Positions 419-18,464 of a stretch of DNA of 64,000 nt are shown one piece after another. The stretch's first letter is position 1. Every line of letters begins with the position of its first letter. Origin of the DNA: Dehalococcoidia bacterium (GTDB lineage: Bacteria; Chloroflexota; Dehalococcoidia; Lucifugimonadales; UBA1123); the NCBI GenBank assembly GCA_963665255.1, contig OY762210.1, forward strand, positions 130,866 through 194,865, written 5' to 3'. Under the pieces are notes generated by a model that ran no database searches, was not told the DNA's origin, and saw only the letters and a program-made list of their open reading frames with translations. A program made the position numbers and the translations under genes.

Positions 419-562
419 CTAGAACCCCGGCATGTTTGGACGCTCACCAAGCAGCAGCGCTCCGCCGTCGGCGAAGGTTGCTGGGCGCATGGCTACGTGG
501 GCGGCTACTGTGTGCACGTCGCGGAAAAGCCGCTCCACCGGGGACGATGTCCATATGGACTC
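419..562 (-). pseudogene. Orphan 3'-terminal fragment of an acyl-CoA-dehydrogenase-family gene (paralogous to the 3' end of 3102-4301)
   Basis: Minus-strand reading gives ...ESIWTSSPVERLFRDVHTVAAHVAMRPATFADGGALLLGERPNMPGF*. The end of 3102-4301 reads ...ESIYVSSPVERLFRDVHTVAAHVAMRPATLADGGALLLGERPNMPGF*. The nucleotide alignment 419-562 vs 3102-3245 is gap-free and roughly four-fifths identical by eye. An in-frame TGA at 632-634, 24 codons upstream, rules out a full-length gene. Confidence 0.6.
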
Positions 563-943: not shown

Positions 944-1099
944 GGGCGTCACCTTTCTGCGCGGAACAGGGCTGATGATGTGACCAGTGCGGCTAGCTTG
1001 CTACATAAGAGTCGGCTGTTGTGGGCAAGCGGACCTTAAAGCGTCCGTCTCTCTTCTGCGAAGTCTTTCTGGCCAAAGTTGCTATTATGTGCTTCCTTC

Positions 1100-1704: not shown

Positions 1705-1896
1705 GCCGTAGCTCCGTAGTATCTCCAACGGTTAGTTGTCAGGGCTGTCAACAGCATAGCATCGGCACACCACCAGGTCACTCGACGGACATGATCAGCA
1801 AACAGGTGGAACGGCTTGGCGATCAAGCCTTGGCCAAGTCGACCTCGCACCCCAGTAGGACTATGCGACGGTCCGGGCCGACTGTCTCCTGTCGCC

Positions 1897-3012: not shown

Positions 3013-3101
3013 TCTCCTGTTTCGTGTCGAGATAGTGCGGTCATCGTACCGGAGTCTTTCACAGTACTGGAACCAACTACGGCAGGCAGCCGAGAGGCTC
3101 C

Positions 3102-4301
3102 CTAGAAGCCCGGCATGTTCGGCCTCTCGCCCAGCAGCAGCGCTCCGCCGTCGGCCAGGGTCGCAGGCCGCATGGCGACGTGTGCGGCGACGGTGTGTAC
3201 GTCGCGGAACAGCCGCTCCACAGGCGACGAGACGTATATGGACTCAGTGCCCCCGGCGCGGTACACCCGGTCCACCGCGTCGACTGAGGCGGTGCCCGCA
3301 TTGGTGCAGGCAAGGCGGAAGTGGGCTCGCAGCTCCGAACTCAGCGGTTCGTCGGTGGTGATCTTCGCCCACACCTGGCCCAGAGTGTCATGCAGGTAGG
3401 CCCGCGCGCTGCCCACGAGGGCCTCTGCGGCCCCCAGGTCGGCCTGCTTGTCGAAATTGGTTGACGCCGGACGACTGCTCGGCAGTTCCTGCTTCCCCCC
3501 AAGGATTTCGATCAGGCTGTCGACCGCACCTCGCGCTCCCCCCAACGCAACAGACGCCATCGCGCCGACCACCATTGCGCTGTAGGTGTAGTGACGGTTC
3601 GGACGAAGGTTCGGCGCCCGCAGCGGGTGCTGGGACACCATCCGGTCGGGAACGAAGACGTCGTCCATCGTGTAGTCGTGGCTGCCGGTACCCCGCAGGC
3701 CCGTCGAGTGCCAGGTATCGAGGATGTGGCAGTCACCAATCGGCGTGTAGAACACCCGCCAGGCGGGGATGTCGCCATCCATGATCGGCCCCTGCTCATC
3801 GTGGAGCCAGCCGCCGCTGGCCATCCAGTCAGCCTGGTGACAGCCACTGCCCATGGGCCACTGACCTGATACTCGCCAGCCGCCGTCGACCCTCAGCGCC
3901 TGTCCATGAGGCACCAGGTTGCCGACGACGTTCACCTGCGCGCCCGGCGTGAAGATTTCTCCGATCGCCTCGTCCGACAGTACCCTTGCGGTCCAGAAGT
4001 TCGTGGAGGCGACGATCATCACAACCCAGCCCACGGAGGGGCTGACCGTTGACAGCGTCTCCACCACCTGCGCCGCGGTGAGCGGGTCGACCTCCAGGCC
4101 TCCCAGCTCCCGGTCCAGCAACATGCGGAAGAACCCCGCATCGGCCAGCCTGGTCACCAATCGGTCCGGCAAGCGGCGCGCATCGTCGATCTCATCGACC
4201 ATGCCCCCGATTTCGGGGAGCAGGGAGTGCGCCGAACCAATAAGGTCCTCGCCCAGGATGCCATCCGCCCCGTCAGTTGCGTTATCGCGAGTGTCGCTCA
4301 T
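3102..4301 (-). CDS. Acyl-CoA dehydrogenase-fold flavoenzyme (group D flavin monooxygenase-like)
   Basis: 399 aa. ACAD N-terminal, middle and C-terminal architecture (…GWRVSGQWPMGSGCHQADW…, C-terminal ERLFRDVHTVAAHV). Substrate unknown. Confidence 0.8.
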   Translation of the reverse strand: MSDTRDNATDGADGILGEDLIGSAHSLLPEIGGMVDEIDDARRLPDRLVTRLADAGFFRMLLDRELGGLEVDPLTAAQVVETLSTVSPSVGWVVMIVASTNFWTARVLSDEAIGEIFTPGAQVNVVGNLVPHGQALRVDGGWRVSGQWPMGSGCHQADWMASGGWLHDEQGPIMDGDIPAWRVFYTPIGDCHILDTWHSTGLRGTGSHDYTMDDVFVPDRMVSQHPLRAPNLRPNRHYTYSAMVVGAMASVALGGARGAVDSLIEILGGKQELPSSRPASTNFDKQADLGAAEALVGSARAYLHDTLGQVWAKITTDEPLSSELRAHFRLACTNAGTASVDAVDRVYRAGGTESIYVSSPVERLFRDVHTVAAHVAMRPATLADGGALLLGERPNMPGF

Positions 4302-4322
4302 TGATAGTCCTGCTTCCGGTAA

Positions 4323-4691
4323 TTACGCGTCCAGGATCCTCTCCAGCCGGACCTGGTTGATCACCAGGAGACTCCGATAGGCAGAACGTGCCTCGCAGAG
4401 GATTCGCTGCGGATCATGCTGGTACTCAGCCCACACTTTCTGGGTCAGATCGGCTACTCTCCCGATCCCCGCTTCATGTACGGACGGATCGAGCGCGTCG
4501 AAGTTGCCCTTACGCATCCAGATGGACGCTTCAGAACGCCCGGTGGCTTCTGCAAGCTCTGTTATAGCAGTATCAAACTGGCTTATACCCCTGTTCCGTA
4601 GGTAGAGCACAGCCAGATCTTCCTCTCGTGTCCACTGCCTTCCTGTCATCAGACCACTCCTGAACTCTTCGAACCACGGCCGCCCCAGCAT
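4323..4691 (-). CDS. Hypothetical protein (resembles the N-terminal domain found in some HNH endonucleases; no HNH motif present)
   Basis: 122 aa. WTREEDLAVLYLRNRG...LAEATGRSEASIWMRKGNFDALDP resembles the N-terminus of certain HNH proteins, but the nuclease part is missing. Confidence 0.4.
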   Translation of the reverse strand: MLGRPWFEEFRSGLMTGRQWTREEDLAVLYLRNRGISQFDTAITELAEATGRSEASIWMRKGNFDALDPSVHEAGIGRVADLTQKVWAEYQHDPQRILCEARSAYRSLLVINQVRLERILDA

Positions 4692-4822
4692 TGACCTGAA
4701 CGTCTCCGATGCCTGGGACAGTTCGACCGACGTATACAGATGTCGTGTTCATGTTACCGTACTGTCTTGAGCGTGGGGGTGATTGCGGGAGGGACCCTGG
4801 AGAAGAGAGATCGACATGATCC

Positions 4823-6112
4823 ATGAAAGATAGCCAGCCGGGTTTCTACTACGGTTGGGTGATCGTGGCCGTGATGGCCGTGTCCAGGGCTGTGACGATG
4901 GGCATGGGGTCACTCAACTTTGGCCTGTTCATCAAGCCCATGGGAGACCAGTTGGGAATTGGGCGCGCCGACTTCGGCTGGGCACAGACTGCCCGTCAGG
5001 CATCGAGCTCCGTCACCAGCCCAGTCGTCGGCTGGCTGCTCGACAGGTACGGCGCCCGCATCATGCTGCCTGTTGCGGTGACCCTGACCGGCGTATCCAT
5101 GATCGGGCTCGCATATGTAAGTCACGCCTGGCAGCTCATCGCCCTGTTCGCCATCATGGGACTCGTCGGACTGAGCGGCCCGGGGGCGCTGGTTACGTCC
5201 GTGCCGGTGCTGAAGTGGTTTGTGGTCGACCGGGGCAAGGCTGTCGCCTTCATGTCCCTGGGAGTCCCATTCGGGGCGCTGATCTTCATCCCACTCACCC
5301 AGTTCGTCATAAACGTCGCCGGTTGGGAGATGTCCTGGATAGTCCTGGCCGTTATCGGGATAGCTGTGGTCGTTCCGCTCACTGGCATATTCGTCCGGAG
5401 GCAGCCCGAGGATATTGGACTCCTGCCCGACGGAGCTGTAGCACGGGACTCGGAGGAAGGTGACTCCGGCGCGCCAGGTGCGGCTTCCGAAGAGGTCTCC
5501 TGGACGGTGTCCGAGGCGATGCGAAGCACAACGCTGTGGAGACTAGTCATCGTGTTCAGCGCGGTGTCACTTGCCACCAGCACTGTCGGCCTTCACAGAA
5601 TCCCCTCCTTCATGGACAAGGGGCTCGACCCCACGCTGATCTCCTTCGCCACCGCGTTCGACGCCGTGTGCGCGGGTGTGTCGACCTTCTCCTTCGGGAT
5701 GCTGGTCAGGTACATTCCCGCGCGATATCTCGGAGCGACCGGCTTCATGTTGCTCGCGACGGCCAGCGTTCTCACCATCTATGCCAACAACATCCTGATC
5801 GTGTTCGTATCGATGGCGGTATTCGGACTGGGAATCGGCGGCATGATGTTCCTGCAGAACTTCATCTGGGCTGACTACTTCGGTCGCGAGAGTGTGGGCA
5901 GCATCCGCGGACTCGTGAACCCGATCAACCTTGTGGTCGGCGGACTTGGAGCGCCCATAGCCGGCTACATCCACGACTTCACCGGCACGTACGATCCCGC
6001 TTGGTGGGTGGGTGTCGCCCTAATGGTCTTCGCCGCCCTCCTGACCGTCGTCACACCGGCGCCAACAAAGCCTGTCGCCGGCGACGGGGAACGAGCCTCG
6101 CCGGTGCCGTGA
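4823..6112 (+). CDS. MFS transporter
   Basis: 429 aa with about 12 predicted TM segments and a central hydrophilic loop (ARDSEEGDSGAPGAASEE). MFS-like motif GWLLDRYGAR after TM2. Confidence 0.85.
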   Translation: MKDSQPGFYYGWVIVAVMAVSRAVTMGMGSLNFGLFIKPMGDQLGIGRADFGWAQTARQASSSVTSPVVGWLLDRYGARIMLPVAVTLTGVSMIGLAYVSHAWQLIALFAIMGLVGLSGPGALVTSVPVLKWFVVDRGKAVAFMSLGVPFGALIFIPLTQFVINVAGWEMSWIVLAVIGIAVVVPLTGIFVRRQPEDIGLLPDGAVARDSEEGDSGAPGAASEEVSWTVSEAMRSTTLWRLVIVFSAVSLATSTVGLHRIPSFMDKGLDPTLISFATAFDAVCAGVSTFSFGMLVRYIPARYLGATGFMLLATASVLTIYANNILIVFVSMAVFGLGIGGMMFLQNFIWADYFGRESVGSIRGLVNPINLVVGGLGAPIAGYIHDFTGTYDPAWWVGVALMVFAALLTVVTPAPTKPVAGDGERASPVP

Positions 6113-6174
6113 GGCTAAGGACGGGGGTTGCGAAAACCGGGGATTAGCGTGGCGCTCTCAGGATAAGTCAGTCG

Positions 6175-6477
6175 TCATTCGCCACCTTCAGGAAGGGTGG
6201 TGGCCTGAAGTCGAAGGCCCAGGGCGCTTACCACTTTGAGTACGGTCGCAAACTCCGGGTTGCCATCGGTAGAGAGTGACTTGTAGAGGCTCTCCCTACC
6301 CAGGCCCGTCTCCTGTGCCACAACCGCCATTCTCCTGGCGCGGGCGATGTCGCCAAGGGTCGCCATGATCAGGCCGAGGTCGCCATCCTCCAGTGCGACG
6401 TTCAGATATGCCGCCATGTCCTCCTCGGTCTCCAGGTGCTCAGCGGGGTCCCACGGCCTCGTCTTCGTCTTTTCCAT
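6175..6477 (-). CDS. Addiction-module antidote protein (HigA/XRE-like)
   Basis: 100 aa. RPWDPAEHLETEEDMAAYLNVALEDGD...IARARRMAVVAQETGLGRESLYKSLSTDGNPEFATVLKVVSALG is the classical antidote partner of the killer protein upstream. Confidence 0.8.
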   Translation of the reverse strand: MEKTKTRPWDPAEHLETEEDMAAYLNVALEDGDLGLIMATLGDIARARRMAVVAQETGLGRESLYKSLSTDGNPEFATVLKVVSALGLRLQATTLPEGGE

Positions 6478-6491
6478 TGCTCTGCTCCCTC

Positions 6492-6785
6492 CTACAGTCC
6501 CCGTGCCAGATCAATCGCCCTTCGGATGTCCCGTACCTGGCTGTCCTTGTCGCCTCCAGCCAGAAGGACTACCAGGGTCTCTCCTCGCTGAATGTAGTAC
6601 ACCCGGTACCCTGGTCCATAGTTGATCCGAATCTCGGATACCCCTTCGCCTACGGGTCTTATGTCTCCGGGATTACCCAGGGACAACCGACGTATGCGGC
6701 TGTCTATTCGTACCCTGGCTTGTCTATCGCGAAGCCTTCTGAACCAGCGGGCGTAGACCTCAGTCTGGCGAATCTCGATCATCAC
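6492..6785 (-). CDS. Addiction-module killer protein (RelE/HigB superfamily)
   Basis: 97 aa. ...RIRRLSLGNPGDIRPVGEGVSEIRINYGPGYRVYYIQRGETLVVLLAGGDKDSQ. Lies 14 nt upstream of its antidote gene. Confidence 0.85.
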   Translation of the reverse strand: MMIEIRQTEVYARWFRRLRDRQARVRIDSRIRRLSLGNPGDIRPVGEGVSEIRINYGPGYRVYYIQRGETLVVLLAGGDKDSQVRDIRRAIDLARGL

Positions 6786-6882
6786 ACAACTGTAGTCTAC
6801 AGGATACTTTCAGGCAAGAGTGGTCGGCACCTCGGAGGCGCAGATGACCGCAGCTTTCACAGGCGCTCCCGGCCCGGCAACT

Positions 6883-7668
6883 TTACCCGCTGGTGAAGAT
6901 CTCGTTGGCGAGGTCCATTGCGCCGCGCGCGAACGGTATGCCGGCGTAGAGCGTCATGTGGCCGAACACCTCGATGACCTGGTCCTGCGTGAACCCGATG
7001 TTCAGCGCGGCCCTGATGTGGCTCCGCAGCGGACCCTCGCGTCCCAGCGCGGCTAGGCACGCCATGGTGCAGATGCAGCGGCTGGCGAGATCGAGCCCCG
7101 GTCGGGTCCAGGTCGCGCCCCAGTAGTACTCTCCGGTGATCTGACCCAGCTCCCTCTCAGCCTGTGTCGGCTGGTTCGCGCGTGTGGGCGAAGTGGTGCC
7201 CATGTAGCGCTGCCGTAGCTCCTCGCCGCGCTGGAACAGGCTGTCGGGATCTTCGTTGGTGTCGTGGACGCGCGACGGCGTGAAGTCTATCCCCCGCTCC
7301 TCGAAGACCTCCTTGCAGATCGTCAGCGCCTGGATGCCCGCCGGCGCTGCACCGTACCAGGTGTCGTGAATGATCAGCTCCACTAGCTGCTCGGGGGTCA
7401 GTCCGACGTTCAGGGCGTTGCCCAGGTGTCGCTTGAGCTGCACCTCGCGGTTCATGACGATGAGGCACGACAGCGTGATCATCTCCCGCTGAACCGGCGT
7501 CAACGCGGGCCGCCTCCAGATGTCGCCGAACAGCGCCTCGCCGAGAATTCTCTCCAGGTCCGGCGCAAGCTCCCATGCTGCCGGCGCCGACCCGCTGGAG
7601 ATCTGTCCGCCGCCGAACATCCTCCGAGTCTCCTGCCCTCGTTCGTAGCGGTCGTCCAGTTCACTCAT
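6883..7668 (-). CDS. Carboxymuconolactone decarboxylase (CMD/AhpD-like) family protein, two CMD repeats
   Basis: 261 aa. Two copies of the CMD pattern (…RPALTPVQREMITLSCLIVMNREVQLKRHLGNALNVGLTPEQLVELI… and …RPGLDLASRCICTMACLAALGREGPLRSHIRAALNIGFTQDQVIEVF…). Confidence 0.85.
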   Translation of the reverse strand: MSELDDRYERGQETRRMFGGGQISSGSAPAAWELAPDLERILGEALFGDIWRRPALTPVQREMITLSCLIVMNREVQLKRHLGNALNVGLTPEQLVELIIHDTWYGAAPAGIQALTICKEVFEERGIDFTPSRVHDTNEDPDSLFQRGEELRQRYMGTTSPTRANQPTQAERELGQITGEYYWGATWTRPGLDLASRCICTMACLAALGREGPLRSHIRAALNIGFTQDQVIEVFGHMTLYAGIPFARGAMDLANEIFTSG

Positions 7669-7831
7669 AGTGCGCCTCCGTGGTGTGTGTGCCGGGATTC
7701 CAGTCGCCGACAGTGTACGGGGGCATCAGTGTGGGGGCAATTGTTCCAGACCAGGGTGGACGGCATGTTCTGCTAGCTGGCTTCGTCAGTGCAAGGGAAT
7801 CAGTGGCCAGGATGGGAAGACGTGGCAGTTC

Positions 7832-8581
7832 TTACTCCCCCCGCAGGCGCCGGAGTTCAGCCTCCAGTTCTTGCACACGAGACTCGGCGGCTTCTGCGCG
7901 GGTGCGTTCCTCTTCTGCACGGGTGCGTTCCTCTTCAGCACGGGTGTGCTCCTCTTCGGCACGTTCCCGCTCCTCTTTTCGCCTGAGTAGCCAGCGTTCT
8001 GCAACTGGGTCCCAGAATCGCAGGTCATCCTCCGACCACCAGATGTCCAGATTCAGAGCCTCGCTATGTGACCACACCCGACCATCGGACTCGTGCCGAA
8101 GCTCGAACCTGTGATACTCGCCGTCCCGAAGGTATTCGCCTACAAGTGGCTCGCCATAGAACTCACCGCCCGTCGCATCGTAGCGCCAGTATTCGGACAC
8201 GCCAAGCTCCGCGTAAAGGTCACGCTTGCGACCCAGATCGACGTTGGCTGTGCTGGGAGAACCTATCTCCAGTACGAAGTCCGGTGCCTTGCCAACTTCC
8301 CATAGCAGGTATGTGTTGTTCCCCTCCAGCGACAGTGAATGCAGCGCTGTCTCCGACAGCCCAAAGACCACGTAGCAGTCGGGAGAGACCAAGCGTCGGG
8401 GATTGCCTTCGACGTAGTAGATGAACGTGTTCCCGTTGACATTTGCGTCCTGAACGTCTCGGAAGTGGTCTTCGAGGTCACCCACTATCCTGCGATAAAG
8501 AGGCGCTTGGTACTCTCCGTCTGGCAATGGCATACCGTCCGATTCAGGATAGACAATGGCAGTGGAGGCTCGGGTGGTCAT
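7832..8581 (-). CDS. Uma2-family (DUF820) endonuclease with C-terminal coiled-coil repeat tail
   Basis: 249 aa. YPESDGMPLPDGEYQ...SPDCYVVFG...PDFVLEIGSPST...KRDLYAELGVSEYWRYD is the PD-(D/E)xK Uma2 pattern. The tail reads RAEEEHTRAEEERTRAEEERTRAE...ELRRLRGE. Confidence 0.85.
   Translation of the reverse strand: MTTRASTAIVYPESDGMPLPDGEYQAPLYRRIVGDLEDHFRDVQDANVNGNTFIYYVEGNPRRLVSPDCYVVFGLSETALHSLSLEGNNTYLLWEVGKAPDFVLEIGSPSTANVDLGRKRDLYAELGVSEYWRYDATGGEFYGEPLVGEYLRDGEYHRFELRHESDGRVWSHSEALNLDIWWSEDDLRFWDPVAERWLLRRKEERERAEEEHTRAEEERTRAEEERTRAEAAESRVQELEAELRRLRGE
7896..7979. repeat. 21-bp tandem repeat, about 4 units, inside the Uma2 gene
   Basis: Units gcgcgggtgcgttcctcttct / gcacgggtgcgttcctcttca / gcacgggtgtgctcctcttcg / gcacgttcccgctcctctttt. 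They encode the (RAEEE[HR]T)n tail. Confidence 0.8.
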
Positions 8582-8889
8582 GGCCTACTCCTTTGCTCCC
8601 CGACATTTTACCACGCGGTATGAAACTGCCTGTATCGCCAGCTTCGGCCCTTCGCCAGCCCGATGTCTTGGCTCAACCCCAGTGTGTCTGTGGTAGTGCC
8701 CTCGTATCCCAACACCGGCTAGCACTCTCGGTTGACGGTCAATAGTCATAAAGTCGGATTGATTGATATTAGTTTAATGCTAGTCTTTTGTTTATGGAAA
8801 TGGTTAGTGATATTCAGGGTTATCGGTGGTGTTCGCACGGTTGTAGACCGACCAGCCGGCTGCACTGCCGGGAGCTGGAAGGCTTCTTC

Positions 8890-9030
8890 TGAACACCCCG
8901 AGTGAAGGCAGGCATGAAGTGGAAATCAGCTGGACACCAAGGCCGGGGGACAGTCTGGTAAGGGTACCGAGGCAGAGCGGTCTGGAGAAGCTCAGGTTCT
9001 CTGCTGATAGCGTGCGTAAGACGCGCAGGG
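8890..9030 (+). promoter_or_regulatory. Structured 5' leader of the K+ transporter gene; candidate c-di-AMP (ydaO/kimA-type) riboswitch
   Basis: The leader contains GAAAUCAG, CCGGGGGAC, GGUAAGGG and CUGAUAGCGUGCGUAAGACGCG in the same order as elements I recall from the ydaO motif. The match is partial and from memory, with no covariance search. Confidence 0.3.
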
Positions 9031-9032
9031 GC

Positions 9033-10358
9033 ATGTCGCCTGCCCTGATAGTCATCTACGTCTTCGTCAGTCTGGCCCTGCTCGGCACCCTGGCCCTGGC
9101 GCTGCCGTTCACTCACACCTCGGGCGGCGGAGCGCGCCACCTGTTCGTCTCAGCTTTCACCGCGACCTCTGCCATAACGGAGACCGGCCTGGCCGTAGAG
9201 GACACCACGACCTATTGGACCACCAGCGGCCAGATCGTGCTGGCGGGGATCATCTTTGTGGGTGGCCTGGGTTTCATGACCCTGGCCACCTTCGCGCTTG
9301 TCCTTCTGGGTCAGCGCATCTCACTCTCCCAGAGATTGCTGATCAGGGAGAGCTATGGAGGAGAGAACGTCGGCTTTGGCCGGGGTGGGATCGTCCGCAT
9401 GGTGATCGGGGTTGCCTCGTTCGCAGTCGCCGCACAGGTGCTGGCCTTCGTAGTACTGATCCTCAGGCTGTGGTGGGTGGACGACCTGACTCCGCATACC
9501 GCGGTCGAATCTCTCTTCAGGGCCGTCTCCGCGTTCAATAACGCCGGGTTCTCCATTGCCCCACAGGGAGGGCGCTTCAGTTCGGACTGGACCGTAATCG
9601 GCGTAACCGCCCTGATGGTCTTTCTCGGCGGAATTGGCTTCCTGGTGCTGTCGGACATAGTCACCCGTCGCAGGTTCGGACGCTTCAGCCTGACGACCAA
9701 GCTGGTCGTCGCTGCCACCGCCCTGGTCCTGCCCATCAGCATCGGCACGTTTCTCGTGCTGGAGTACAGCAATCCCGGGACACTCGGAGCTCTGCCTCTC
9801 GATCAGAAGGTTGCCACGGCAGCGTTCGAGTCCGTGAGCGCCAGGAGCGGCGGGTTCTCACTGATCGACCACTCCGAGACCGGCCATGCGACCAAGCTGT
9901 GGACGATCGGCGCGATGCTTGTGGGAGGGGCCTCAGCTTCGGCTGCGGGAGGACTCAAGATCAACACGCTGGCCGTGATGTTCATAGGAATCTGGTCAGC
10001 CATCAGGGGAAGAAGGCACGCCTCTGCATTTGGACGGGAGATATCGGAGCGGCAGGTCATGAGCGCGCTGGTGATTGGAGTAGTCGCTGTGACAGTGATC
10101 TTCGGTGTACTCGTATGCCTGAGCATCACGGACAGCGGTCTGGACTCGCTCGACCTGCTCTTCGAGGGAGTATCCGCCTTCGGCACCGTGGGACTGAGCT
10201 CGGGAGCAACCTCGCAGCTTTCGGTACTGGGACAGTGCGTACTCATGCTTACGATGCTGGTGGGAAGACTGGGGCCCCTGACCATTGGCCTGGCCATGGC
10301 CCAGGGCCCCGAGGTGGAGCAGTACCGCCTGCCGCAGGAGTACGTGGCCACGGCGTGA
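9033..10358 (+). CDS. TrkH/KtrB-family potassium uptake membrane subunit
   Basis: MSPALIVIYVFVSLALLGTLALALPFTH...FTATSAITETGL..., with repeated pore-loop motifs (SAFNNAGFS, SARSGGFS, SAFGTVGLS). I chose the ATG at 9033 because the family normally starts just before TM1. The ORF track start at 8919 would add 38 non-homologous residues over the leader. Confidence 0.85.
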   Translation: MSPALIVIYVFVSLALLGTLALALPFTHTSGGGARHLFVSAFTATSAITETGLAVEDTTTYWTTSGQIVLAGIIFVGGLGFMTLATFALVLLGQRISLSQRLLIRESYGGENVGFGRGGIVRMVIGVASFAVAAQVLAFVVLILRLWWVDDLTPHTAVESLFRAVSAFNNAGFSIAPQGGRFSSDWTVIGVTALMVFLGGIGFLVLSDIVTRRRFGRFSLTTKLVVAATALVLPISIGTFLVLEYSNPGTLGALPLDQKVATAAFESVSARSGGFSLIDHSETGHATKLWTIGAMLVGGASASAAGGLKINTLAVMFIGIWSAIRGRRHASAFGREISERQVMSALVIGVVAVTVIFGVLVCLSITDSGLDSLDLLFEGVSAFGTVGLSSGATSQLSVLGQCVLMLTMLVGRLGPLTIGLAMAQGPEVEQYRLPQEYVATA

Positions 10359-10626
10359 GGGGGGTGGGATGCCCATAGGCATCGGGCGTGCAGGGCGCTC
10401 CCTCAACCGGTATGTGACGCTCATCGACGTTGGAGACTCGCTGGTTAGTGCATCACTCTCGTCGGAGCCTAGAACAGGCGAAAACATTGTAATCAGAGTG
10501 GACCGGAATCAGAGATGACCGTCCTAGAATGGTACACAGGAGAAGTGTCAGAGACGTTCAGTGTGGCATGTTGTGAACTGCAACCACTTCCCTGTTCGTA
10601 CCCCATAGGAATGCTTGCGGCGCTAG

Positions 10627-11394
10627 ATGGTATGCTTTAGTATCGCGCCTGCTTGGGATTCAAGTGGTCAGCCAATTCTGGAGACTGAGGAGGGTAATGT
10701 GGTTGAGGAAGCGCACGACCCGGCCCCAGCCATATGGGTTCATCAGGAAAGCGCAGTAGTGGATGCCGACACCCACGATGTGTGGAGCTTTACGCCAGAG
10801 TTTCTGCTAGTGGACGGGATCGTGCCCGAAACTTGGTCGTGTCGACGAGCGAGTCGTGAACCGGCTGAGGCAGATATCGACTACGGACCCACCAATTGGC
10901 GCATGACGGAGAACCAGCTCTGGATCAGTGTTTACCCTGACGTGTCTGTCTCAGAGTGGCATAGCTTGCCGGAAGCCAGCCTCATACCCAGTTTGGCGCA
11001 ACGCTATTTGGAGCGAGTCCCATATCTCCCGTTTGAGAGAGCCTTTTTCTATTGGAATGTTTCCACCTTAAAGACCGACCAACTAAGTCGAATGGTGGAG
11101 AACATGCTTCCCAGCGATTGGCCCGAGGAATTTAAGACTTTAGCAAATCAGACTCAACCTCTGCTCCAATTCACCAGCGAAAACCACAATTTCCAGATAA
11201 CGATGCAAGACCGGGCAGTGGAACGTGAAGGCAGCACGTTCGACGATTCAATCGTCTTCAACTGCCACGCTTTTCCTTCCGCAGAGCAGCCCCTCGACAG
11301 AGCCATCACGGAGATGGGCAATTGGGCGGCGCGCTGGCGGACCTTACAACGTGCAATTCAGCATCTTACGGGAGAAATGGAGCCCAATGCCTGA
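10627..11394 (+). CDS. Hypothetical protein (island ORF A)
   Basis: 255-aa ORF with no motif I recognise. Alternative GTG start at 10699 lies behind GGAGGG. The stop overlaps the next ATG (ATGCCTGA). Confidence 0.5.
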   Translation: MVCFSIAPAWDSSGQPILETEEGNVVEEAHDPAPAIWVHQESAVVDADTHDVWSFTPEFLLVDGIVPETWSCRRASREPAEADIDYGPTNWRMTENQLWISVYPDVSVSEWHSLPEASLIPSLAQRYLERVPYLPFERAFFYWNVSTLKTDQLSRMVENMLPSDWPEEFKTLANQTQPLLQFTSENHNFQITMQDRAVEREGSTFDDSIVFNCHAFPSAEQPLDRAITEMGNWAARWRTLQRAIQHLTGEMEPNA

Positions 11395-12124
11395 GTCCCA
11401 AGTACGAGAATCGAGGCTGTTTACTCGTTCTCCGGGCGGGAGAAAGAGAGCTTCAGCTCATGCACCAAGATGGAATTTCCTCGCGACTAAACGTCTAGGG
11501 CAAGGCACTCCTCGCAACATGCCAGATCAATTGCAGGGTAGTACCTCGGAACCCCAATCCCTGATGGACATCATCGAACTGTCGCAATTGCCTCCTAACG
11601 TTGCCAGGGTTGTCGGTTCAAGAGGAGGGCATACACTCGCCGGCAGTCATATTAACGTTGAGTCTGCCAGCCTAGAATTAATTCCAGAAGTCTACGATGT
11701 CTATATTGCTCCTTCGACAGCCCCCGTGCAGGAAGCTCTTGCCAATGACTTCGAAGTCTATGCACCTGATTTACCGGATGCATTACGTGAACTCTACGAA
11801 GTCCAGAGTGAGGCCCGATCGGACGGAGGCATTGTCCCAGATGATGATGCGGTGGAGAGGGCCAAACGAGTACTCATGGCCATGTACCGGATCTCCCCCA
11901 GGCTGTACGCCGTTTACCCTATGGACGACGGGGAGATCGCCATTGACGCGGCAACGAAGTATGGAACATCCTTGGTTGTTCTATGCAATCCGGATGGAAG
12001 TGCCCAATGCTTAACCTACATTGGCGAGGAGTACCGCACGAAGGAGTATTCTGACACGGGAATCCTGCCTGATGACTTCATTCAGCAAGCACTGCTGGAC
12101 TCGAGCCCACTCACTGATTCTTGA
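11388..12124 (+). CDS. Hypothetical protein (island ORF B)
   Basis: The ORF track starts at 11225 and overlaps ORF A by 170 nt out of frame. The ATG at 11388 overlaps the ORF A stop by 7 nt and is more plausible. No recognisable motif. Confidence 0.45.
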
Positions 12125-12534
12125 TGGCGGATCCGTCAAGCGATGTCGCTACCAGTGAAGAACTGGGGCGACGTGTCTCTTCAGAAAGAAGAGCCAGAAG
12201 TGCTCGAAGTGGCAATGTGCAATGGCGGGAGTTCTTGGCCCGTGAGGGAGAGCACACCCTCTCTTTCGACAGGATAAGCATTGCTCCCTTGGCTCAGATC
12301 ACGGCTATCGCCCGCAGTCAGGGCAACCCCTTCCAGGGATGGGCAGTCATCACCGCTGATGATGCTGGAAAGAATGGACGAACAGTAGTCTCATCCCCTC
12401 TACCCGATAACCGATACCACTCGGACATTGTCCTGCCTGCTGAGGCCACTACTGACTCTGAGGTTCGCAAGCAGCACGCCACTGAGTTGAAGGCAATTAC
12501 TCATCGCTGGCAAGAACCCCACCCCGGATCTTAA
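12124..12534 (+). CDS. Hypothetical protein (island ORF C)
   Basis: ATG at 12124 overlaps the ORF B stop by 1 nt (TGATG), suggesting translational coupling. 136 aa, ...GWAVITADDAGKNGRTVVSSPLPDNRYHSDIVLP... Family not recognised. Confidence 0.5.
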   Translation: MADPSSDVATSEELGRRVSSERRARSARSGNVQWREFLAREGEHTLSFDRISIAPLAQITAIARSQGNPFQGWAVITADDAGKNGRTVVSSPLPDNRYHSDIVLPAEATTDSEVRKQHATELKAITHRWQEPHPGS

Positions 12535-12749
12535 ACGCCGCTTGTTGGTTAACGAGGCAAGATTCTCTGATGAACACCTGACGCCCGTCGACGGTAAAGA
12601 CCTCGCCAGCAAGTTCTTCACACCGGGCGCCGACTCCGCAGGCCGCACACACGAACATCTCTGACTCGTGCCCAACTAGTCAATCCACTCGTGTCACGAT
12701 CGTACATCAGGTCGACTTTAATCGTGGATGCATCCGACCGACATCCGTT

Positions 12750-12882
12750 TGTGCTGTGGATGAGTGGTGCGATGCTCGTGGGAAGACTGGGGCCCCTGAC
12801 GATCGGGCTGGCAATGGCCCATGGACCCCAACCCGGAGTGGAGCAGTATCGCCTACCTCAAGAGTACGTCGCCGCCGCGTGA
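12750..12882 (+). pseudogene. Displaced or duplicated 3' fragment of a trkH/ktrB gene
   Basis: Encodes ...AMLVGRLGPLTIGLAMAHGPQPGVEQYRLPQEYVAAA*. The intact gene ends ...TMLVGRLGPLTIGLAMAQGPEVEQYRLPQEYVATA*. Same orientation, one 3-nt indel, and no upstream transporter body. Confidence 0.65.
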
Positions 12883-12982
12883 GGCCGAGAGTTGACAATA
12901 TATATCGTATGGGTCGAACATATGCTGTATTATATGAAGTGGCCACGCCACACTCAGTAATAACAGGTATGAGAACGCTTCG

Positions 12983-13999
12983 ATGTCACTAAGGCTCACC
13001 AGTTTTCTGAAGGACAAACCAAACACTTCCGAAGTCACTCTGACCATCGACGAATACGAAGAGCGGTTCAGGACGCACAAGCGCGCTGGGATGGGAAGCG
13101 ACTTCAGGAAGTCCAGCGACCTCTACTATGACCTGGTCACTGACTTCTACGAGTACGGATGGGGGCGGTCATTTCACTTTGCCCCGCGCGTTTCTGGAGA
13201 GGGCTTCAAGGCGTCGCTTATTCGTCACGAGCGATTCCTGGCGAGTAAGCTCGGACTCGAACCCGGAATGGTCGTCGCCGATCTGGGTTGCGGGATTGGC
13301 GGGCCGCTGTTGGAGATCGCACGGTTCTCCGGCGCCAGGATCGTCGGCGTAAACAGCAACGCCTATCAGCTCGGGCGCGCCCGGAGATTTGCTGAAGAAG
13401 CGCAGATGACCCACCTGGCCGAGTTCATGCACTCCGACTTCCTGCACGTCGACGCCCCTGACGAGTCGTTCGATGCGGTCTACGCCATCGAGGCAACCTG
13501 CCATGCGCCGGATAAGCTCAGCATCTATGGCGAGGTCTTCCGCCTCCTGAAGCCGGGGGCGAGCTTCGGCAATTACGAATACTGCCTGACCGATCGCTTC
13601 GACCACAAGGACCCCGTCCACCTCAGGATCAAGGCTGATATCGAGCTGGGAGGCGGATTGCTCGAAATCGACGACCGCCAGACGGTTGATGACGCGCTTC
13701 GAACAGTCGGGTTCGATGTGTTGGAAACGCGGGATCTTACGGTGCAGACAGGCCCGTCGGTCCCCTGGTATCAGCCTCTCGTTGGTTCGGGTATCTCTTT
13801 CGCCAGCTTCCGCAGTTCACGTATCGGGCGCTGGGTCACCCACAACACGCTGAGAGTGCTGGAGGCGCTCCACATCGTCCCGCAGGGGTCGGTCCGCGTT
13901 TCGCAGAACCTGAACCTCTGTGCGATGGCCATGGTCGAGGCGGGAAGGCTCGGCATCTTCACGCCGATGTACTTCATCCACGCCCGTAAACCGGAGTAG
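12983..13999 (+). CDS. Sterol C-24 methyltransferase (ERG6/SMT family), paralogue 1
   Basis: 338 aa, collinear end-to-end with yeast Erg6 as I recall it. Region I is YYDLVTDFYEYGWGRSFHFAP, the SAM site is VADLGCGIGGP, region III is VYAIEATCHAP, followed by LKPGASF and the C-terminal GIFTPMYFIHARKPE. Confidence 0.9.
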   Translation: MSLRLTSFLKDKPNTSEVTLTIDEYEERFRTHKRAGMGSDFRKSSDLYYDLVTDFYEYGWGRSFHFAPRVSGEGFKASLIRHERFLASKLGLEPGMVVADLGCGIGGPLLEIARFSGARIVGVNSNAYQLGRARRFAEEAQMTHLAEFMHSDFLHVDAPDESFDAVYAIEATCHAPDKLSIYGEVFRLLKPGASFGNYEYCLTDRFDHKDPVHLRIKADIELGGGLLEIDDRQTVDDALRTVGFDVLETRDLTVQTGPSVPWYQPLVGSGISFASFRSSRIGRWVTHNTLRVLEALHIVPQGSVRVSQNLNLCAMAMVEAGRLGIFTPMYFIHARKPE

Positions 14000-14015
14000 C
14001 GCGGCGGTCCCGACC

Positions 14016-15131
14016 CTAACGACGAGCGGCTGTGGTCTCGAACGGGGCCGTTGAGCCTCGGAAGGTGGACTGCAACGGTGGCGGAGGGAAGCTCTCACCC
14101 TCGCTCAGGTCAGGGTAGAACTGGGCGCAGTAGTACCTGAAGGGCATGATCTTGCCGTCGGAACGGCAGAGACGGGGGCGCGATACGTACTGCTTGCGGC
14201 TCCAGATGACCACGTCCTGCAGGACGTCATCCCTCTGCTGGGCCGCCATGAACCTGTTGATCAAGGGCGCTCGCCAGCTCACAGGGAGCAGTCCCAAACC
14301 TATGATCCTCCGCTTGGGCTTGCGTATCTCCCGTGCCTGCGAGACCAGCGTGAGGTCTATGAGCTTGCCGTCGACAGGCGTCGACAGCACCCACATACGC
14401 ATGTCCATGCCGATCGAGTGCTCGCGGACCTCCACGTACGAGTAGCCCAGCCCATAAACATGGGCGTGCGCAGAGACGTCGAAGGTGAGGCTCGCGAACC
14501 TGGCGATGGTTCGGACCCTCTTGAAGTCGAATTGAGCCTCCAGCAGGTGGCCGTCCACAGACACTTCCTGGACTGGGTTCACGTTGTCGTAGCCATGCAC
14601 GTATCGCAGGTGGGCCATGTCCACCGAGTTCTCGGTCGTCTCCTGAGGGTGGCCCGGAAAGCGGAGGGTGTTGACCTTGAAGTCGCACCATCCGACCTGG
14701 TCAGGCGACTTTTCGGGCAGACGCCACTGCGGCTCCCGTCCGCCTATTCCCCACCAGGCGAAGATCAGCCCGTTGATTTCGTGTGTCTCGAAGACGCGCA
14801 GCTTCGCGGTCCTTGGCGCCTCGGCGTAGGGAGTGGCGACGCACTGGCCGGTCGTGTCGAACTCGTACCCGTGGAATGGGCAGATAAGCAGGCCGTCGCG
14901 TACGCAGCCACCTGCCTCGGGTCCGAGGTCGGAGCCAAGGTGCGGGCAGACCGACTCGGCTACGCAGACATGTCCGTTCCGGTCACACCAGATGACGACG
15001 TTCACGCCCATCCAGGTCTTCTGGACGAGCCCGGACTTCAGTACGGCCTGGCGGGTCGCGATGAAGTACCAACCCTCGGGAAATGGGGAGGGCAACGGAA
15101 CATTAGCGGGCCCACTGCGCTGGGTTACCAT
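14016..15131 (-). CDS. Rieske [2Fe-2S] non-heme iron oxygenase, KshA / cholesterol-7-desaturase (Neverland)-like
   Basis: 371 aa. Rieske motif CPHLGSDL...(17)...CPFHGYEF. Mononuclear iron motif ENSVDMAHLRYVH (DxxHxxxxH). The C-terminal ...DGKIMPFRYYCAQFY resembles the KshA/Neverland-type tail. Confidence 0.85.
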   Translation of the reverse strand: MVTQRSGPANVPLPSPFPEGWYFIATRQAVLKSGLVQKTWMGVNVVIWCDRNGHVCVAESVCPHLGSDLGPEAGGCVRDGLLICPFHGYEFDTTGQCVATPYAEAPRTAKLRVFETHEINGLIFAWWGIGGREPQWRLPEKSPDQVGWCDFKVNTLRFPGHPQETTENSVDMAHLRYVHGYDNVNPVQEVSVDGHLLEAQFDFKRVRTIARFASLTFDVSAHAHVYGLGYSYVEVREHSIGMDMRMWVLSTPVDGKLIDLTLVSQAREIRKPKRRIIGLGLLPVSWRAPLINRFMAAQQRDDVLQDVVIWSRKQYVSRPRLCRSDGKIMPFRYYCAQFYPDLSEGESFPPPPLQSTFRGSTAPFETTAARR

Positions 15132-15184
15132 AGTTCAGCACTCCCTGTGGGTATTTTGGGATTAATCGCAACCATTTAACGCAA

Positions 15185-15214
15185 TTACACTTGTGCCTCA
15201 GTTAGCATTATAAT
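15185..15214 (+). promoter_or_regulatory. Candidate sigma70-type promoter for the P450 gene
   Basis: TTACAC (15185-15190), 18-nt spacer, TATAAT (15209-15214). It lies inside the strikingly AT-rich 184-bp divergent intergenic region, and GAGGGG precedes the ATG at 15316. Confidence 0.4.
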
Positions 15215-15315
15215 AGAAATCGTATCCTTTCCTCGCCCTGCAAACTGTGATTCATGAATATAGGTTAATTTATGTGGTATAGTTATATCATTAACGTCAA
15301 TGAGGGGCAAGGTAA

Positions 15316-17343
15316 ATGACAATCACAAAGGATGCTGTTAAGACGCAGGTGCTAAGCCTGCCTGAAGAACTCATCCTGATGCTTCTAAACGAGGAGAGCG
15401 GCTACTTTTACCAGGTACCCGGATGGGACCTGAACTGTGCCGTGGTCGGCGCCGTTCTCGCGGAACTCTCGATCGAGTCCCGCATCGACACTGACAGGGA
15501 CTCGCTGTTCGTTCTGGACGACACTGAGACGGGCAACTCCACGCTGGACCCCATCCTGAAGGAGATCGCGAGCGAGCCCGCTCAGCGCAACGCCCAGTAC
15601 TGGATCGAACGGCTCTCTCATTATGCGGAGTCGATCATCGATCAGACCCTGGACCGCCTCGTCCGCCTGAATATCCTGGAGTACCACGACGGCGATTTCT
15701 GGACGGTCGCTCCTAACGTGGAACAGACGGTACTGTTCGACGACACGGAGGAAGGGACCGGGATACAGTTCGTCAAGACGCGCATCCGCAACGAGATCTA
15801 CAACAACGAGATCCCCGACCCAAGAGACGTCATCATCATCTGTCTCATCAATACGTGCGACGTCTTTCGCTTCATGTTCAATCTCGATGAGCAGGCTGAG
15901 GAGCGCATCGAGTTCATCTGCAACATGGACCTGATAGGCCGGTCCATTGCCGCCGCGGTCTCCAACAATCTGGCCGGTCCGGTGCTTCGACACTCCCGCC
16001 TAAGCAAGAAGATTCCGACCGTCTCCCTGACGAAGATGGTGTTCAATCGGCATGTTCGCTCGGGAAACGTTCCCGCGCTCTTTGCCGACCTCGCAAAAGA
16101 GTACGGCCCGGTGTTCCAGATCCGGCCTCCGTTTGCCGCGCCCATGATCATGCTGGCCGGGCCTGATACAAACCGCTGGGTGCACCGGCGTGGACGCCTG
16201 CACCTGAGGTCCAGGGACTACTTCGCTGACTTCGAGAAGGTGTATGGCGCGTCCGGAGTATTGCCATCCCTGGATGGCGCCGATCATTTCCGGCTCCGCA
16301 AGTCACTGTCGCCGGCGTACTCTCGCGGAAGACTCATGGGTCAACTGGACCAACTCTACCATCAGACGCGGAAGTATATGGCGGACTGGGAAGTTGGAGA
16401 GTTCTATCCCGCGACGACCCTGTGCCGGCGAATGATTAACGCGCAACTCTCCGCGCTCTTTGTCAGCGTTGAATCTCAGGATATCTTTGATGATCTGACG
16501 TCGTACAAGGAACGGGCGCTCATGACTCACATCATAAAGATACTGCCCAAATTCATGCTTAAGACGCCGGGCATGAGACGCCGCGCGACCACCGTCGATG
16601 AGCTCCTCGAACGGATCCAGAGCGTACATACGCCTGCCCAGCGGGCTGACAGTCCCCGGGATCTTGCCGACGACCTTCTCAGCCTGCACGCGAGCGACCC
16701 CCAGTTTGTACCGGAGTCCAATCTGCGCTTCGCTCTTTCGGCAGCGCTGATTGCCAGTGTGTATCTTGGCGACGCGTTCAGCTTCGCCATGTATGCCATG
16801 GCATCGCAGCCAGAGATCTACGCCAGGATCCAGAGTGAAGCCGACGCGCTGTTCGACAACGGTGATCCGGATGCCATGGACTTCAACCCGGCCTCAATCG
16901 ACGTCACGCACCGCTTCCTCATGGAGTGCCTGCGTATGTACCCGATTGTTCCGATGTCTCTCCGGAACGTGATGAATTCGTGTGTGGTCGAGGGCTTTGA
17001 GTTACCGCTGGGATCACGACTTTACATTGCCCAGACAGCTTCACACTACATGGACGACGTCTTTCCCGACCCCTTCAAATTCGATATCGACCGCTATTTG
17101 CCCCCGCGCAATGAGCACCACAGTCCGGGGTACGCGCCTTACGGGCTGGGCACGCACACGTGTCTTGGCTCCCGGTGGATGGAGCTGCAGTTGGCCGTCA
17201 ATGTGCTAATGGTCGCGCACTACTTCAATATCAAGGTGTTCCCACCGAACTACAACCTGAAGTACAGACCGCTGCCGTCGATGAAGCCGAGCAAGAACCT
17301 GAAGTTCGACATAGTCGAGCAGAGGCGCGAGTTGAACGTCTGA
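15316..17343 (+). CDS. GPP34 (GOLPH3-like) domain fused to a cytochrome P450
   Basis: 675 aa. Residues ~10-230 follow the bacterial GPP34 pattern (LSLPEELILMLLNEESGYF...AVVGAVLAELSIESRI...DPRDVIIICLINTCDVFRFMF). The C-terminal ~440 aa is a P450, with ExxR (ECLRMYP), PFKFDIDRY, and the heme loop YAPYGLGTHTCLGSRWMELQ. Confidence 0.85.
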   Translation: MTITKDAVKTQVLSLPEELILMLLNEESGYFYQVPGWDLNCAVVGAVLAELSIESRIDTDRDSLFVLDDTETGNSTLDPILKEIASEPAQRNAQYWIERLSHYAESIIDQTLDRLVRLNILEYHDGDFWTVAPNVEQTVLFDDTEEGTGIQFVKTRIRNEIYNNEIPDPRDVIIICLINTCDVFRFMFNLDEQAEERIEFICNMDLIGRSIAAAVSNNLAGPVLRHSRLSKKIPTVSLTKMVFNRHVRSGNVPALFADLAKEYGPVFQIRPPFAAPMIMLAGPDTNRWVHRRGRLHLRSRDYFADFEKVYGASGVLPSLDGADHFRLRKSLSPAYSRGRLMGQLDQLYHQTRKYMADWEVGEFYPATTLCRRMINAQLSALFVSVESQDIFDDLTSYKERALMTHIIKILPKFMLKTPGMRRRATTVDELLERIQSVHTPAQRADSPRDLADDLLSLHASDPQFVPESNLRFALSAALIASVYLGDAFSFAMYAMASQPEIYARIQSEADALFDNGDPDAMDFNPASIDVTHRFLMECLRMYPIVPMSLRNVMNSCVVEGFELPLGSRLYIAQTASHYMDDVFPDPFKFDIDRYLPPRNEHHSPGYAPYGLGTHTCLGSRWMELQLAVNVLMVAHYFNIKVFPPNYNLKYRPLPSMKPSKNLKFDIVEQRRELNV

Positions 17344-17383
17344 CGCACCTTGGGATCGCCCGGCAGACTGCGAACGAGAGGAC

Positions 17384-18433
17384 TTAGAGGGGTTTGCGAG
17401 CCAGGAAACAGTACAACGGCGTGAAGATCCCGGTACTGCCGCCTGCGACGTAGGCGTTGGCGGTACCATCCATTAGTCTGATGACGTCCGCGGACCCTTT
17501 CGGGAAAACTCCCAACACCTCGGCCAACCTGGATGCGCCGATGAACAGCTTGCGGCCTAGCGGAACCCTGTACAGGGTGCTGCCCGGCGTTCCTTGCCGG
17601 GTTTCCATGGGCTGATACCACGGCGTGGTCGGACTGCTCTCCTCGACGGCCAGGTCATTCCCCTCGATGACCTGAAATCCCGCCGTTTCGAGGTCCCGGT
17701 TCACCTCACCCATAGTCGCGATCTCCTTGAGCGCGATGCCGTGCATTAGGTCCTGTTTGACGGCCCGGTGCAGATTGTCGTTGGGATCGAACTTGTCCGT
17801 CATGCACATTTCCTGACCCCAGAAAAGGGCTCCGGGTTTCAGAACGCGGTATATCTCGGCGAACGCGCCTGCCTTGTCCGGCGCATGGCATGTCGATTCG
17901 ATCGCGTAGCCTCGGTCGAACGTGTCGTCCGCAATGGCGTCCATGTTCATGAAGCTGCATGCAAGGTAGTCGACCATGTGGTCGATCCCCGCCTCGGCGT
18001 TCAACGATTTGGCCTTGTCCAGTTGGATTTCGCTGCTATTGACCCCTACGACCCTGACGTTAGCTTCCCGGACGACGCGGCGCATTGGGCCGCCGATCCC
18101 GCAGCCCACATCTACCACCGTCATGCCCTCGCTCAACTCAAGCCTGGCGATTATCAGTCGCTGGTGCCGGATCTTGGAGTCCTCCAGACTCTCGCCAGGC
18201 GACAACGGCGCGAAGTGGAGAGACTCGCCCCAGCCGAACACCATGAACTCGCTGCAAAGATCGTAGTACTCCCTGACGGTTTCGGCGTGGTTGTAGCCCG
18301 TTGCGCCGTCATTTTCTGCGGGCGCCCTGTCCATCCATCCATCGAGTCTTCTCACGCGACGGTGGGTGTCCGCCCCACGGTACGCGGCCTTCAGATCCTT
18401 GGATAGCTTGCGGAGTTGCAGGAGACTTTCCAA
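17384..18433 (-). CDS. Sterol C-24 methyltransferase (ERG6/SMT family), paralogue 2
   Basis: 349 aa. Region I is YYDLCSEFMVFGWGESLHFAP, the SAM site is VVDVGCGIGGP, region III is GYAIESTCHAP, followed by LKPGALF and the C-terminal GIFTPLYCFLARKPL. TTG start behind GGAGG. Lies 31 nt downstream of the MMPL gene on the same strand. Confidence 0.9.
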   Translation of the reverse strand: MESLLQLRKLSKDLKAAYRGADTHRRVRRLDGWMDRAPAENDGATGYNHAETVREYYDLCSEFMVFGWGESLHFAPLSPGESLEDSKIRHQRLIIARLELSEGMTVVDVGCGIGGPMRRVVREANVRVVGVNSSEIQLDKAKSLNAEAGIDHMVDYLACSFMNMDAIADDTFDRGYAIESTCHAPDKAGAFAEIYRVLKPGALFWGQEMCMTDKFDPNDNLHRAVKQDLMHGIALKEIATMGEVNRDLETAGFQVIEGNDLAVEESSPTTPWYQPMETRQGTPGSTLYRVPLGRKLFIGASRLAEVLGVFPKGSADVIRLMDGTANAYVAGGSTGIFTPLYCFLARKPL

Positions 18434-18464
18434 AATGCGGTAACCTCCGGTTACTTGGCGGAGC

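Follow-up and report, generated by a model that had tools for sequence, protein, structure and literature searches.

A duplicated trkH 3' end around a three-gene cassette, with similar gene-end footprints elsewhere in an integrase-poor Dehalococcoidia genome

The trkH locus and its insert

We analyzed a 64,000-nt stretch of the complete 3.71-Mb genome of a Dehalococcoidia bacterium (genome G000, C1:130866-194865), referred to below as the window, in which the 3' end of the K+ transporter gene trkH occurs twice, once on the gene itself and once beyond an insert that holds a cassette of three genes (ORF1-3). The locus was compared with genomes G001, G005, G006, G043, and G045 and with metagenome contigs L031, L037, L039, L040, L041, and L042. 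Its features, in window coordinates, are as follows.

8919..10358, plus strand: trkH, 479 aa, intact (PF02386, E = 8.8e-48); body native, last ~145 nt very probably imported
10252..10360, plus strand: repeat copy 1, attached to the gene and very probably its imported 3' end ("type 1", without the 6-nt QP insertion); matches L031 at 88/113 and L037 (P0005) at 93/105
10361..10626, plus strand: spacer and ~170-nt conserved cassette leader; the leader aligns in G000, L040, L041, and L042, the spacer to the trkH stop in G000 and L042
10627..11394, plus strand: cassette ORF1, 255 aa; homologues at 52-69% identity in L040, L041, and L042
11387..12124, plus strand: cassette ORF2, 245 aa; start overlaps the ORF1 stop; 14 homologues, all metagenomic
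12121..12534, plus strand: cassette ORF3, 137 aa; the most conserved of the three (82-90%); a family of only 3 clusters
12569..12688, minus strand: remnant of an MqsA-like zinc-ribbon antitoxin gene (first ~40 codons, in-frame stop); tblastn against the intact G045 gene 52% over 40 aa, E = 1.4e-10; 76% DNA identity to G005
12672..12769, minus strand: remnant of a DUF4258 toxin gene (C-terminal ~33 codons), identified by aligning its DNA and protein sequences with the intact toxins of G005 and G045 and with the L042 remnant
12770..12884, plus strand: repeat copy 2, the orphan, very probably the original last 36 codons and stop of trkH; matches L031 at 105/113 and runs on into native downstream DNA
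12983..13999, plus strand: SMT1 (PF08498 and methyltransferase domains); native downstream neighbor of trkH in the G000 lineage, adjoining trkH in L031

The two copies of the trkH end (10252-10360 and 12770-12884) lie in the same orientation at an offset of 2.5 kb and share 85% identity. Segment by segment, the repeat search gave 88% for 10252-10310 against 12770-12828 and 83% for 10308-10360 against 12832-12884, and self-BLAST of the whole genome returned the repeat as one high-scoring segment pair of 115 nt (81% identity, E = 1.5e-20), confirming the diverged duplication reported in a preliminary description of the window. The repeat spans the last 35-37 codons and the stop of trkH, its homology ends 2 nt past the stop in both copies, and a block of 23 nt without differences lies at its 5' edge; no transporter body precedes the orphan copy at 12770. 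The substitutions between the copies were as first described, but the indel, originally given as 3 nt, aligns as two codons (6 nt; GPEVEQ versus GPQPGVEQ). Among the codons compared, 21 are identical, 11 differ synonymously only, and 3 differ non-synonymously. Since the changes are mostly synonymous, both copies diverged while serving as coding ends. A trkH paralogue, 54% identical, is present elsewhere in the genome.

The insert between the copies measures 2409 nt. Its GC content is indeed lower than that of the flanks, by a modest step (0.54 versus 0.585-0.60) rather than a conspicuous one. The initial impression that the insert has no recombinase, tRNA, or terminal inverted repeats held up: searches of Pfam, NCBIfam, PADLOC, and PHROGs found no recombinase domain in the insert ORFs, the repeat search found no terminal inverted repeats of the insert, and no tRNA occurs in window 1-16000, by which a tRNA-associated island was rejected.

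The products of ORF1-3 matched no toxin-antitoxin (TA), defense, or other family in Pfam, NCBIfam, PADLOC, PHROGs, or the PDB. ORF1 gave weak PDB matches only (E = 0.015 and 0.053) and had no close homologue in species-representative genomes, and an AlphaFold2 model of ORF3 built from a 4-sequence alignment was unusable (predicted local distance difference test score, pLDDT, 37.5). The leader and ORF1-3 are kept as a unit in four contexts, namely G000, L041, L042, and L040. The cassette lies directly after an intact trkH in L041, with no orphan detected there; in L040 no trkH is in view, and 6 kb off there are a DDE fragment and a tyrosine integrase. In support of the preliminary description, ORF1-3 lie downstream of trkH in two other lineages, and one of these has trkH fragments as well.

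Between ORF3 and the orphan lie the remains of a TA pair that is intact in G005 and G045. The intact MqsA-like gene of G045 matches PF15731 below the Pfam gathering score (26.1 versus 30 bits, E = 1e-05). The DUF4258 remnant in G000 alone is not significant by tblastn, and its call rests on the nucleotide alignment and on the L042 match (E = 1.6e-05).

The native trkH end and the variable slot beside it

The 119-kb metagenome contig L031 encodes a TrkH protein (P0001, 481 aa) that is 97% identical in amino acids to that of G000, and it is collinear with the window on both sides of the insert (6875-10360 at 94%, 12770-20953 at 95.7%). Its gene order is trkH, 100 nt, SMT1, Rieske, GPP34-P450, SMT2, and MMPL, and it thus represents the empty site, with trkH directly before the SMT cluster, that the preliminary description had suggested looking for. 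Compared with the trkH end of L031, the orphan agrees at 105/113 positions, 6-nt insertion and VAAA terminus included, and the gene-attached copy at only 88/113. The latter is closest to alleles of more distant lineages, namely L037/P0005 (93/105) as well as P0006 and L041; the C-termini of P0005 and P0006 read ...GPEVEQYRLP..., like the imported type. Because the orphan matches the native allele of L031, we conclude that the orphan is very probably the displaced original end and that the present end of the gene came with the insert. The central claim of the preliminary description, that DNA was inserted at the trkH 3' end and supplied a replacement end, is upheld by this distribution of a native allele on the orphan and a foreign one on the gene.

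The ancestral G000 lineage had a trkH ending ...GPQPGVEQYRLPQEYVAAA, with SMT1 directly after it, and then gained foreign DNA. The donor was a relative in which another trkH allele is followed by the ~170-nt leader and ORF1-3. From this DNA trkH now takes its last ~145 nt, and the original last 113 nt persist as an untranslated orphan 2.4 kb downstream. For the window, this means that SMT1 of the sterol cluster is the original neighbor of trkH and the three-gene cassette a later arrival.

Across the genomes examined, the slot downstream of trkH takes at least six states.

trkH then Rieske: G043, L037, L039
trkH then SMT1: L031
Repeat-bracketed ORF1-3 insert: G000
4.3 kb with DUF2779 and a luciferase-like gene: G045
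About 28 kb: G005
Own forms: L041, L042

The 3' end of trkH is a recombination hotspot. SMT1 is itself variable, as trkH is followed directly by Rieske, without SMT1, in G043, L037, and L039, and it may be an older arrival at the same hotspot. G006 (contig C20) lacks the equivalent of window 9820-13959, from mid-trkH to the last 40 nt of SMT1, which is either a deletion that destroyed trkH and SMT1 or an assembly gap. The trkH of G001 (C1:2525928-2526807; P0046, 291 aa) has an apparent internal deletion, with residues ~55-240 missing.

In L042, a luciferase-like gene comes after a full trkH; next stand a trkH fragment that runs from ~residue 394 to the end, ORF1-3, the TA remnants known from G000, and an orphan of 36 codons. 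From the spacer behind the trkH stop through the cassette and the remnants to the right joint, L042 aligns with G000, which argues for the same founding event plus a second, later tandem insertion with a different boundary. Orphan length at trkH accordingly varies by event, from 36 residues to ~88 in the second L042 insertion.

The repeat could in principle reflect a chimeric assembly of two strains, given that the genome derives from a metagenome, or the template and variable repeats of a diversity-generating retroelement (DGR), whose variable repeats are likewise ~110 nt long and lie at a gene's 3' end. Both were rejected, and we regard this family of explanations as extremely improbable: the junction between insert and orphan recurs in the independent assembly L042, and analogous footprints occur in other genomes (below). 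The substitutions are of all types, without adenine bias, and mostly synonymous, they are accompanied by the 6-nt indel, and the G000 genome has no match to the reverse transcriptase family PF00078.

Joints, recurrent footprints, and routes of arrival

At the right boundary, the DUF4258 toxin gene breaks off exactly at the start of the orphan (12769/12770) and is fused to trkH at codon ~445. A fusion of two truncated genes points to an illegitimate joint rather than to the arm of an attachment (att) site. On the left, mismatches to L031 number 4 in 9900-10213 (313 nt) and then 6 in 10214-10248 (35 nt); the foreign tract thus extends ~40 nt beyond the repeat on its upstream side, with the switch falling within trkH at ~10173-10214. 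Since this tract exceeds the repeat, a reciprocal crossover within the repeat, whether site-specific or of the Campbell type, is insufficient by itself, whereas homologous exchange inside trkH can account for it. One joint thus lies in a homologous tract and the other between unrelated sequences, the pattern of homology-facilitated illegitimate recombination (HFIR), which was reportedly described in naturally transformable bacteria by de Vries and Wackernagel and by Prudhomme et al., both in 2002.

Similar footprints occur throughout the genome. We scanned the whole of G000, and no other genome, for low-copy local direct repeats of 70-500 nt, a filter that excludes repetitive extragenic palindromic (REP)-like repeats and spurious ORFs, with gene calls from crude ORF filters. 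The scan yielded 11 candidate 3'-end footprints, in which the last 70-260 nt of a gene recur 0.6-4.8 kb downstream; for ~8 of the 11, alignment shows the homology ending at the stop codon. Three mirror-image candidates, in which the 5' end of a gene recurs upstream, were also found, and none of the low-copy local repeats of G000 had the gene-breaking orientation. The identified cargo comprises McrBC (case A), PDC-M11A/B (case C; E = 6e-161), VapBC (a 5' case), HigBA, and small unknown proteins; the footprints mostly surround toxin-antitoxin and anti-phage genes. The site of case C is empty in five relatives, and the repeat there is a chimera that switches ~20 nt ahead of the stop. Another site, "gene B", is empty in G006 and G001 and holds three unrelated cargos in G000, G045 (AIPR), and G043, giving at least four states, with orphans of 182, 194, and 54 nt, respectively.

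We suggest that the incoming DNA was anchored on its left by homologous recombination within trkH, at ~10173-10214. Its right end, broken inside the DUF4258 toxin gene of the TA pair beside the cassette, would have been fused by an illegitimate joint to the resident trkH some dozens of bases farther along, at what is now position 12770. One homologous anchor and one illegitimate joint would complete the insertion in a single HFIR-like step, with no need for an integrase. Selection would keep only gene-preserving events, so that surviving footprints would always consist of an intact gene and a 3' orphan or of a 5' orphan and an intact gene. The occupied allele would then pass among related lineages by homologous recombination in its flanks, and the slot would gather or swap cargo afterwards. 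We hold the anchor-and-joint mechanism with moderate confidence, and the whole account, comprising the imported end, the mechanism, and the subsequent spread, is our best explanation at a comparably intermediate level of belief.

Several observations weigh against this mechanism. Each orphan allele tracks its own lineage: that of G000 is 93% identical to L031 and that of L042 is 92% identical to the L042 gene end, versus 78% between the two orphans. Because each resembles the local allele, they look like two independent integrations at the same base, and a single illegitimate joint would need later recombination or conversion inside the orphan. The orphan starts of gene B in G000 and G045 fall within a few bases of each other despite unrelated cargo. 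Microhomology at the joint would have to be read from a donor sequence, and none is available; the intact DUF4258 genes of G005 and G045 are too diverged near the joint. Divergence from L031 just right of the insert is 7-9% over ~750 nt, versus a mean near 4%, in a noisy profile (1-9%); this fits a homology-anchored model, but how far any imported tract reaches to the right is only suggested by it. To our knowledge, HFIR has not been demonstrated to leave gene-end duplications. As the alleles of the G000 and L042 orphans are simpler under a site-specific process, our confidence in the anchor-and-joint mechanism goes no higher.

Such a process, an updated form of the model in the preliminary description, would involve an integrase-less, site-specific cassette that carries a gene-end fragment in its attP, recombines at a fixed core near CGATGCT, and is served in trans by a tyrosine or serine recombinase of a helper element, a phage, or XerCD, in the manner of the integrase-less elements compared below. 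The direct repeats derived from the target and the empty site in L031 are those of an att-type element; G000 and L042 share the junction position, with orphans that follow the local native alleles. The 23 nt without differences at the repeat's 5' edge, the tandem accretion at the L042 trkH, the near-identical orphan start for two unrelated gene B cargos, and the L040 cassette 6 kb from a tyrosine integrase are all in its favor. We nevertheless find it doubtful, because the supposed P arm is a truncated toxin gene, the foreign tract begins upstream of the repeat, other events at trkH and gene B use different boundaries, and the case C switch falls near the 3' end of its repeat. Inspection by eye of ten footprint junction pairs revealed no common att-like motif.

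Integrases are equally hard to find. None lies at the trkH locus in G000, G001, G005, G045, L031, L041, or L042, including every occupied or variant form, and among the genomes searched (G001, G005, G043, G045, L031, L037, L039, L041, and L042) no integrase-bearing element shares the trkH site. All matches to PF00589, PF00239, and PF07508 in G000 are far from the locus; the genome has only two intact XerC/D-like tyrosine recombinases, plus one or two large serine recombinases, none near the footprints. G001, G005, G006, and G045 each have essentially two XerC/D-like tyrosine recombinases, away from the loci, so that hardly any integrase is present in five genomes of the genus. While the preliminary description was right about an insertion with a replacement gene end, its further proposal, that the insert is the relic of a site-specific element that has lost its integrase, is not supported: besides this scarcity, the right joint truncates the DUF4258 gene, the foreign tract starts ~40 nt early, orphan lengths vary between events, and the junctions share no motif.

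A circle bearing a trkH-end fragment and the cassette could instead have integrated by a RecA-dependent, Campbell-type single crossover within the 110-nt homology. Such a circle could loop out of another genome via its own repeats, which would then act as a portable, homology-defined attachment site. This would explain the direct repeats, the constant orphan start per cassette lineage, the chimeric repeats of case C, the lack of integrases, and the existence of both 3' and 5' versions. We consider it quite improbable, as the foreign tract of G000 reaches ~40 nt past the homology that a circle could carry and as G000 and L042 would both require a crossover confined to the initial ~8 nt of the repeat. 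An earlier illegitimate event would still be needed to join fragment and cassette, because that joint cuts the toxin gene.

Alternatively, a larger foreign segment might have brought a second full trkH in tandem, with a later deletion removing the 5' part of DUF4258 and most of the resident trkH. The deletion-like fusion of two truncated genes at the joint, the longer trkH fragment kept in L042 (~88 residues), and the paralogue elsewhere in the genome agree with this scenario. It requires two events where one suffices, no examined genome has two full adjacent trkH genes, and none of the 14 candidate footprints (0/14) keeps a wrong-end fragment, a regularity that random deletions would not give; we judge it decidedly improbable.

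A broader possibility, which we regard as unlikely, is that TA and anti-phage cassettes in integrase-poor SAR202 sponge symbionts spread without recombinases, with the gene-end fragment serving as a portable, homology-defined "address". If so, cassettes would insert at the same gene in new hosts, leaving the gene intact and its old end orphaned, and the repeats would allow loop-out and re-insertion, a general and undescribed way of building defense islands at gene ends. More remote is the idea that ORF1-3 themselves encode an unrecognised recombination function.

Comparison with known systems and further footprint loci

Islands, prophages, and integrative elements that are conjugative (ICEs) or mobilizable (IMEs) integrate at the 3' ends of tRNA and protein genes, with attP carrying the replacement end (PMC5704250). 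The G000 footprints share with such islands, ICEs, and IMEs the gene-end direct repeats, the new end supplied by the insert, the empty sites in relatives, and the accessory cargo. They differ in lacking an integrase, in G000 as in relatives, and in having a truncated gene rather than an arm-type site as the right boundary, boundaries that vary by event, and an imported tract longer than the repeat.

Integrase-less elements offer a closer comparison. Pseudo-staphylococcal cassette chromosome (pseudo-SCC) elements are integrase-less passengers at rlmH. Streptococcal cis-mobilizable elements (CIMEs) are likewise integrase-less passengers of att sites (PMC7563491, PMC5704250), and Prochlorococcus tycheposon remnants lie at partial tRNA repeats (bioRxiv 10.1101/2020.12.28.424599). 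All three resemble the present case in their small, recombinase-less cargo, their repeats of conserved gene ends, and their tandem accretion, seen here in L042. Unlike the G000 footprints, they depend on a related, integrase-bearing element that uses the att site as well; no such element was found for any of the ~14 sites here, in a genus nearly devoid of integrases.

With HFIR, the trkH insert has in common one homologous anchor, an illegitimate joint close by, the lack of a dedicated recombinase, and foreign DNA beside a conserved gene. HFIR is known from laboratory transformation, where it usually replaces or deletes recipient DNA, and we know of no description of a natural, recurrent HFIR outcome with gene-end orphans around TA or defense cargo. 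A literature search for a described integrase-free mechanism of gene-end duplication turned up known comparators only. The minimal mobile elements of Neisseria and the flexible genomic islands of marine bacteria occupy slots that are exchanged by flanking homologous recombination. As in those systems, a single slot between conserved genes holds varied cargo (at least six states at trkH and at least four at gene B) and is exchanged via its flanks; their slots are not marked by displaced gene ends, unlike those described here.

How chromosomal TA modules and small defense systems move without visible mobile machinery is an old question that has been poorly answered. G000 provides a repeatable footprint for it, with 10 to 14 loci and relatives that have empty sites and alternative cargos. 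As this footprint recurs in a lineage that is nearly integrase-free, the question can be addressed by pangenome statistics and transformation experiments. The interest of the locus lies mainly in this recurrence around TA and defense cargo in an integrase-poor symbiont. For annotation, short "pseudogene tails" after intact genes mark insertion hotspots and date the insert, and a conserved gene may be xenologous in its last codons.

Further candidate loci in G000, in genome coordinates, are listed below.

3' footprint candidates: 3412148-3415736, 3231190-3233373, 3221074-3223601, 1012363-1013440, 899873-901143
Further 3' footprint candidates: 95047-99964, 3144492-3145326, 3606120-3606893, 1966474-1967293
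5' mirror candidates (5' end duplicated ~1 kb upstream): 223020-224469, 411331-412831, 3280441-3281826

Cargo at the listed 3' candidates includes McrBC, PDC-M11A/B, DUF2177 and DUF402 proteins, and an arrestin-like protein, and several of these inserts are low in GC (0.49-0.52). The 5' candidates contain a collagen-like repeat protein, a VapBC pair, and a 268-aa coiled-coil protein. In case A, the stop codon of the McrC-like gene (3412408-3412415) abuts the first base of the orphan, and this cargo gene may have been trimmed by its junction, too. Analogous footprints were also seen in G001, G043, and G045.

A second gene-end pair in the window, already reported in the preliminary description, proved real. 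It involves an acyl-CoA dehydrogenase (ACAD)-like gene.

419..562, minus strand: orphan ACAD 3' end, 47 codons and stop, beside HigBA
3102..4301, minus strand: intact ACAD-like gene (PF08028, PF02771); its last 144 nt are repeat copy 2

The copies (419-562 and 3102-3245) are 83% identical over 144 nt, and their codons differ by 16 synonymous versus 3 non-synonymous changes. HigBA lies directly downstream of the full gene in G005. The order in G001 is HigBA, a 41-codon orphan, a 5.3-kb GHKL-ATPase/MBL cassette, and the gene, and that in G000 is HigBA, the orphan, three other genes, and the gene. We rejected the notion that the orphan hitch-hiked on a G000-specific HigBA insertion, as the outgroups G005 and G001 show HigBA and the orphan to be older. 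L031 and G006 have lost a 1.33-kb segment with HigBA and the ACAD orphan, bounded by an imperfect 10-nt repeat, GACCCCRYCG, at G000 130204-130213 and 131547-131556 (window ~-661 to -652 and 682-691), which is consistent with a microhomology-mediated deletion.

Other parts of the window also vary among relatives. At 6153-6875 lies a HigB/HigA-like pair (Gp49 / dnstrm_HI1420) that is absent from G006, and the equivalent position in L031 holds ParA-like, HEPN RiboL-PSP, and DUF3224 genes; these differing contents point to another cassette slot. The segments 965-1896 and 7750-8712 include a DUF433/DUF5615 TA pair, absent from L031 and partly deleted in G006, and a Uma2 gene, absent from G006. Short dispersed repeats resembling REPs or miniature inverted-repeat transposable elements (MITEs) occur at window 25129-25215, 33172-33364, 39819-39926, 44926-44961, and 54956-55107, with many copies in G000 and its relatives.

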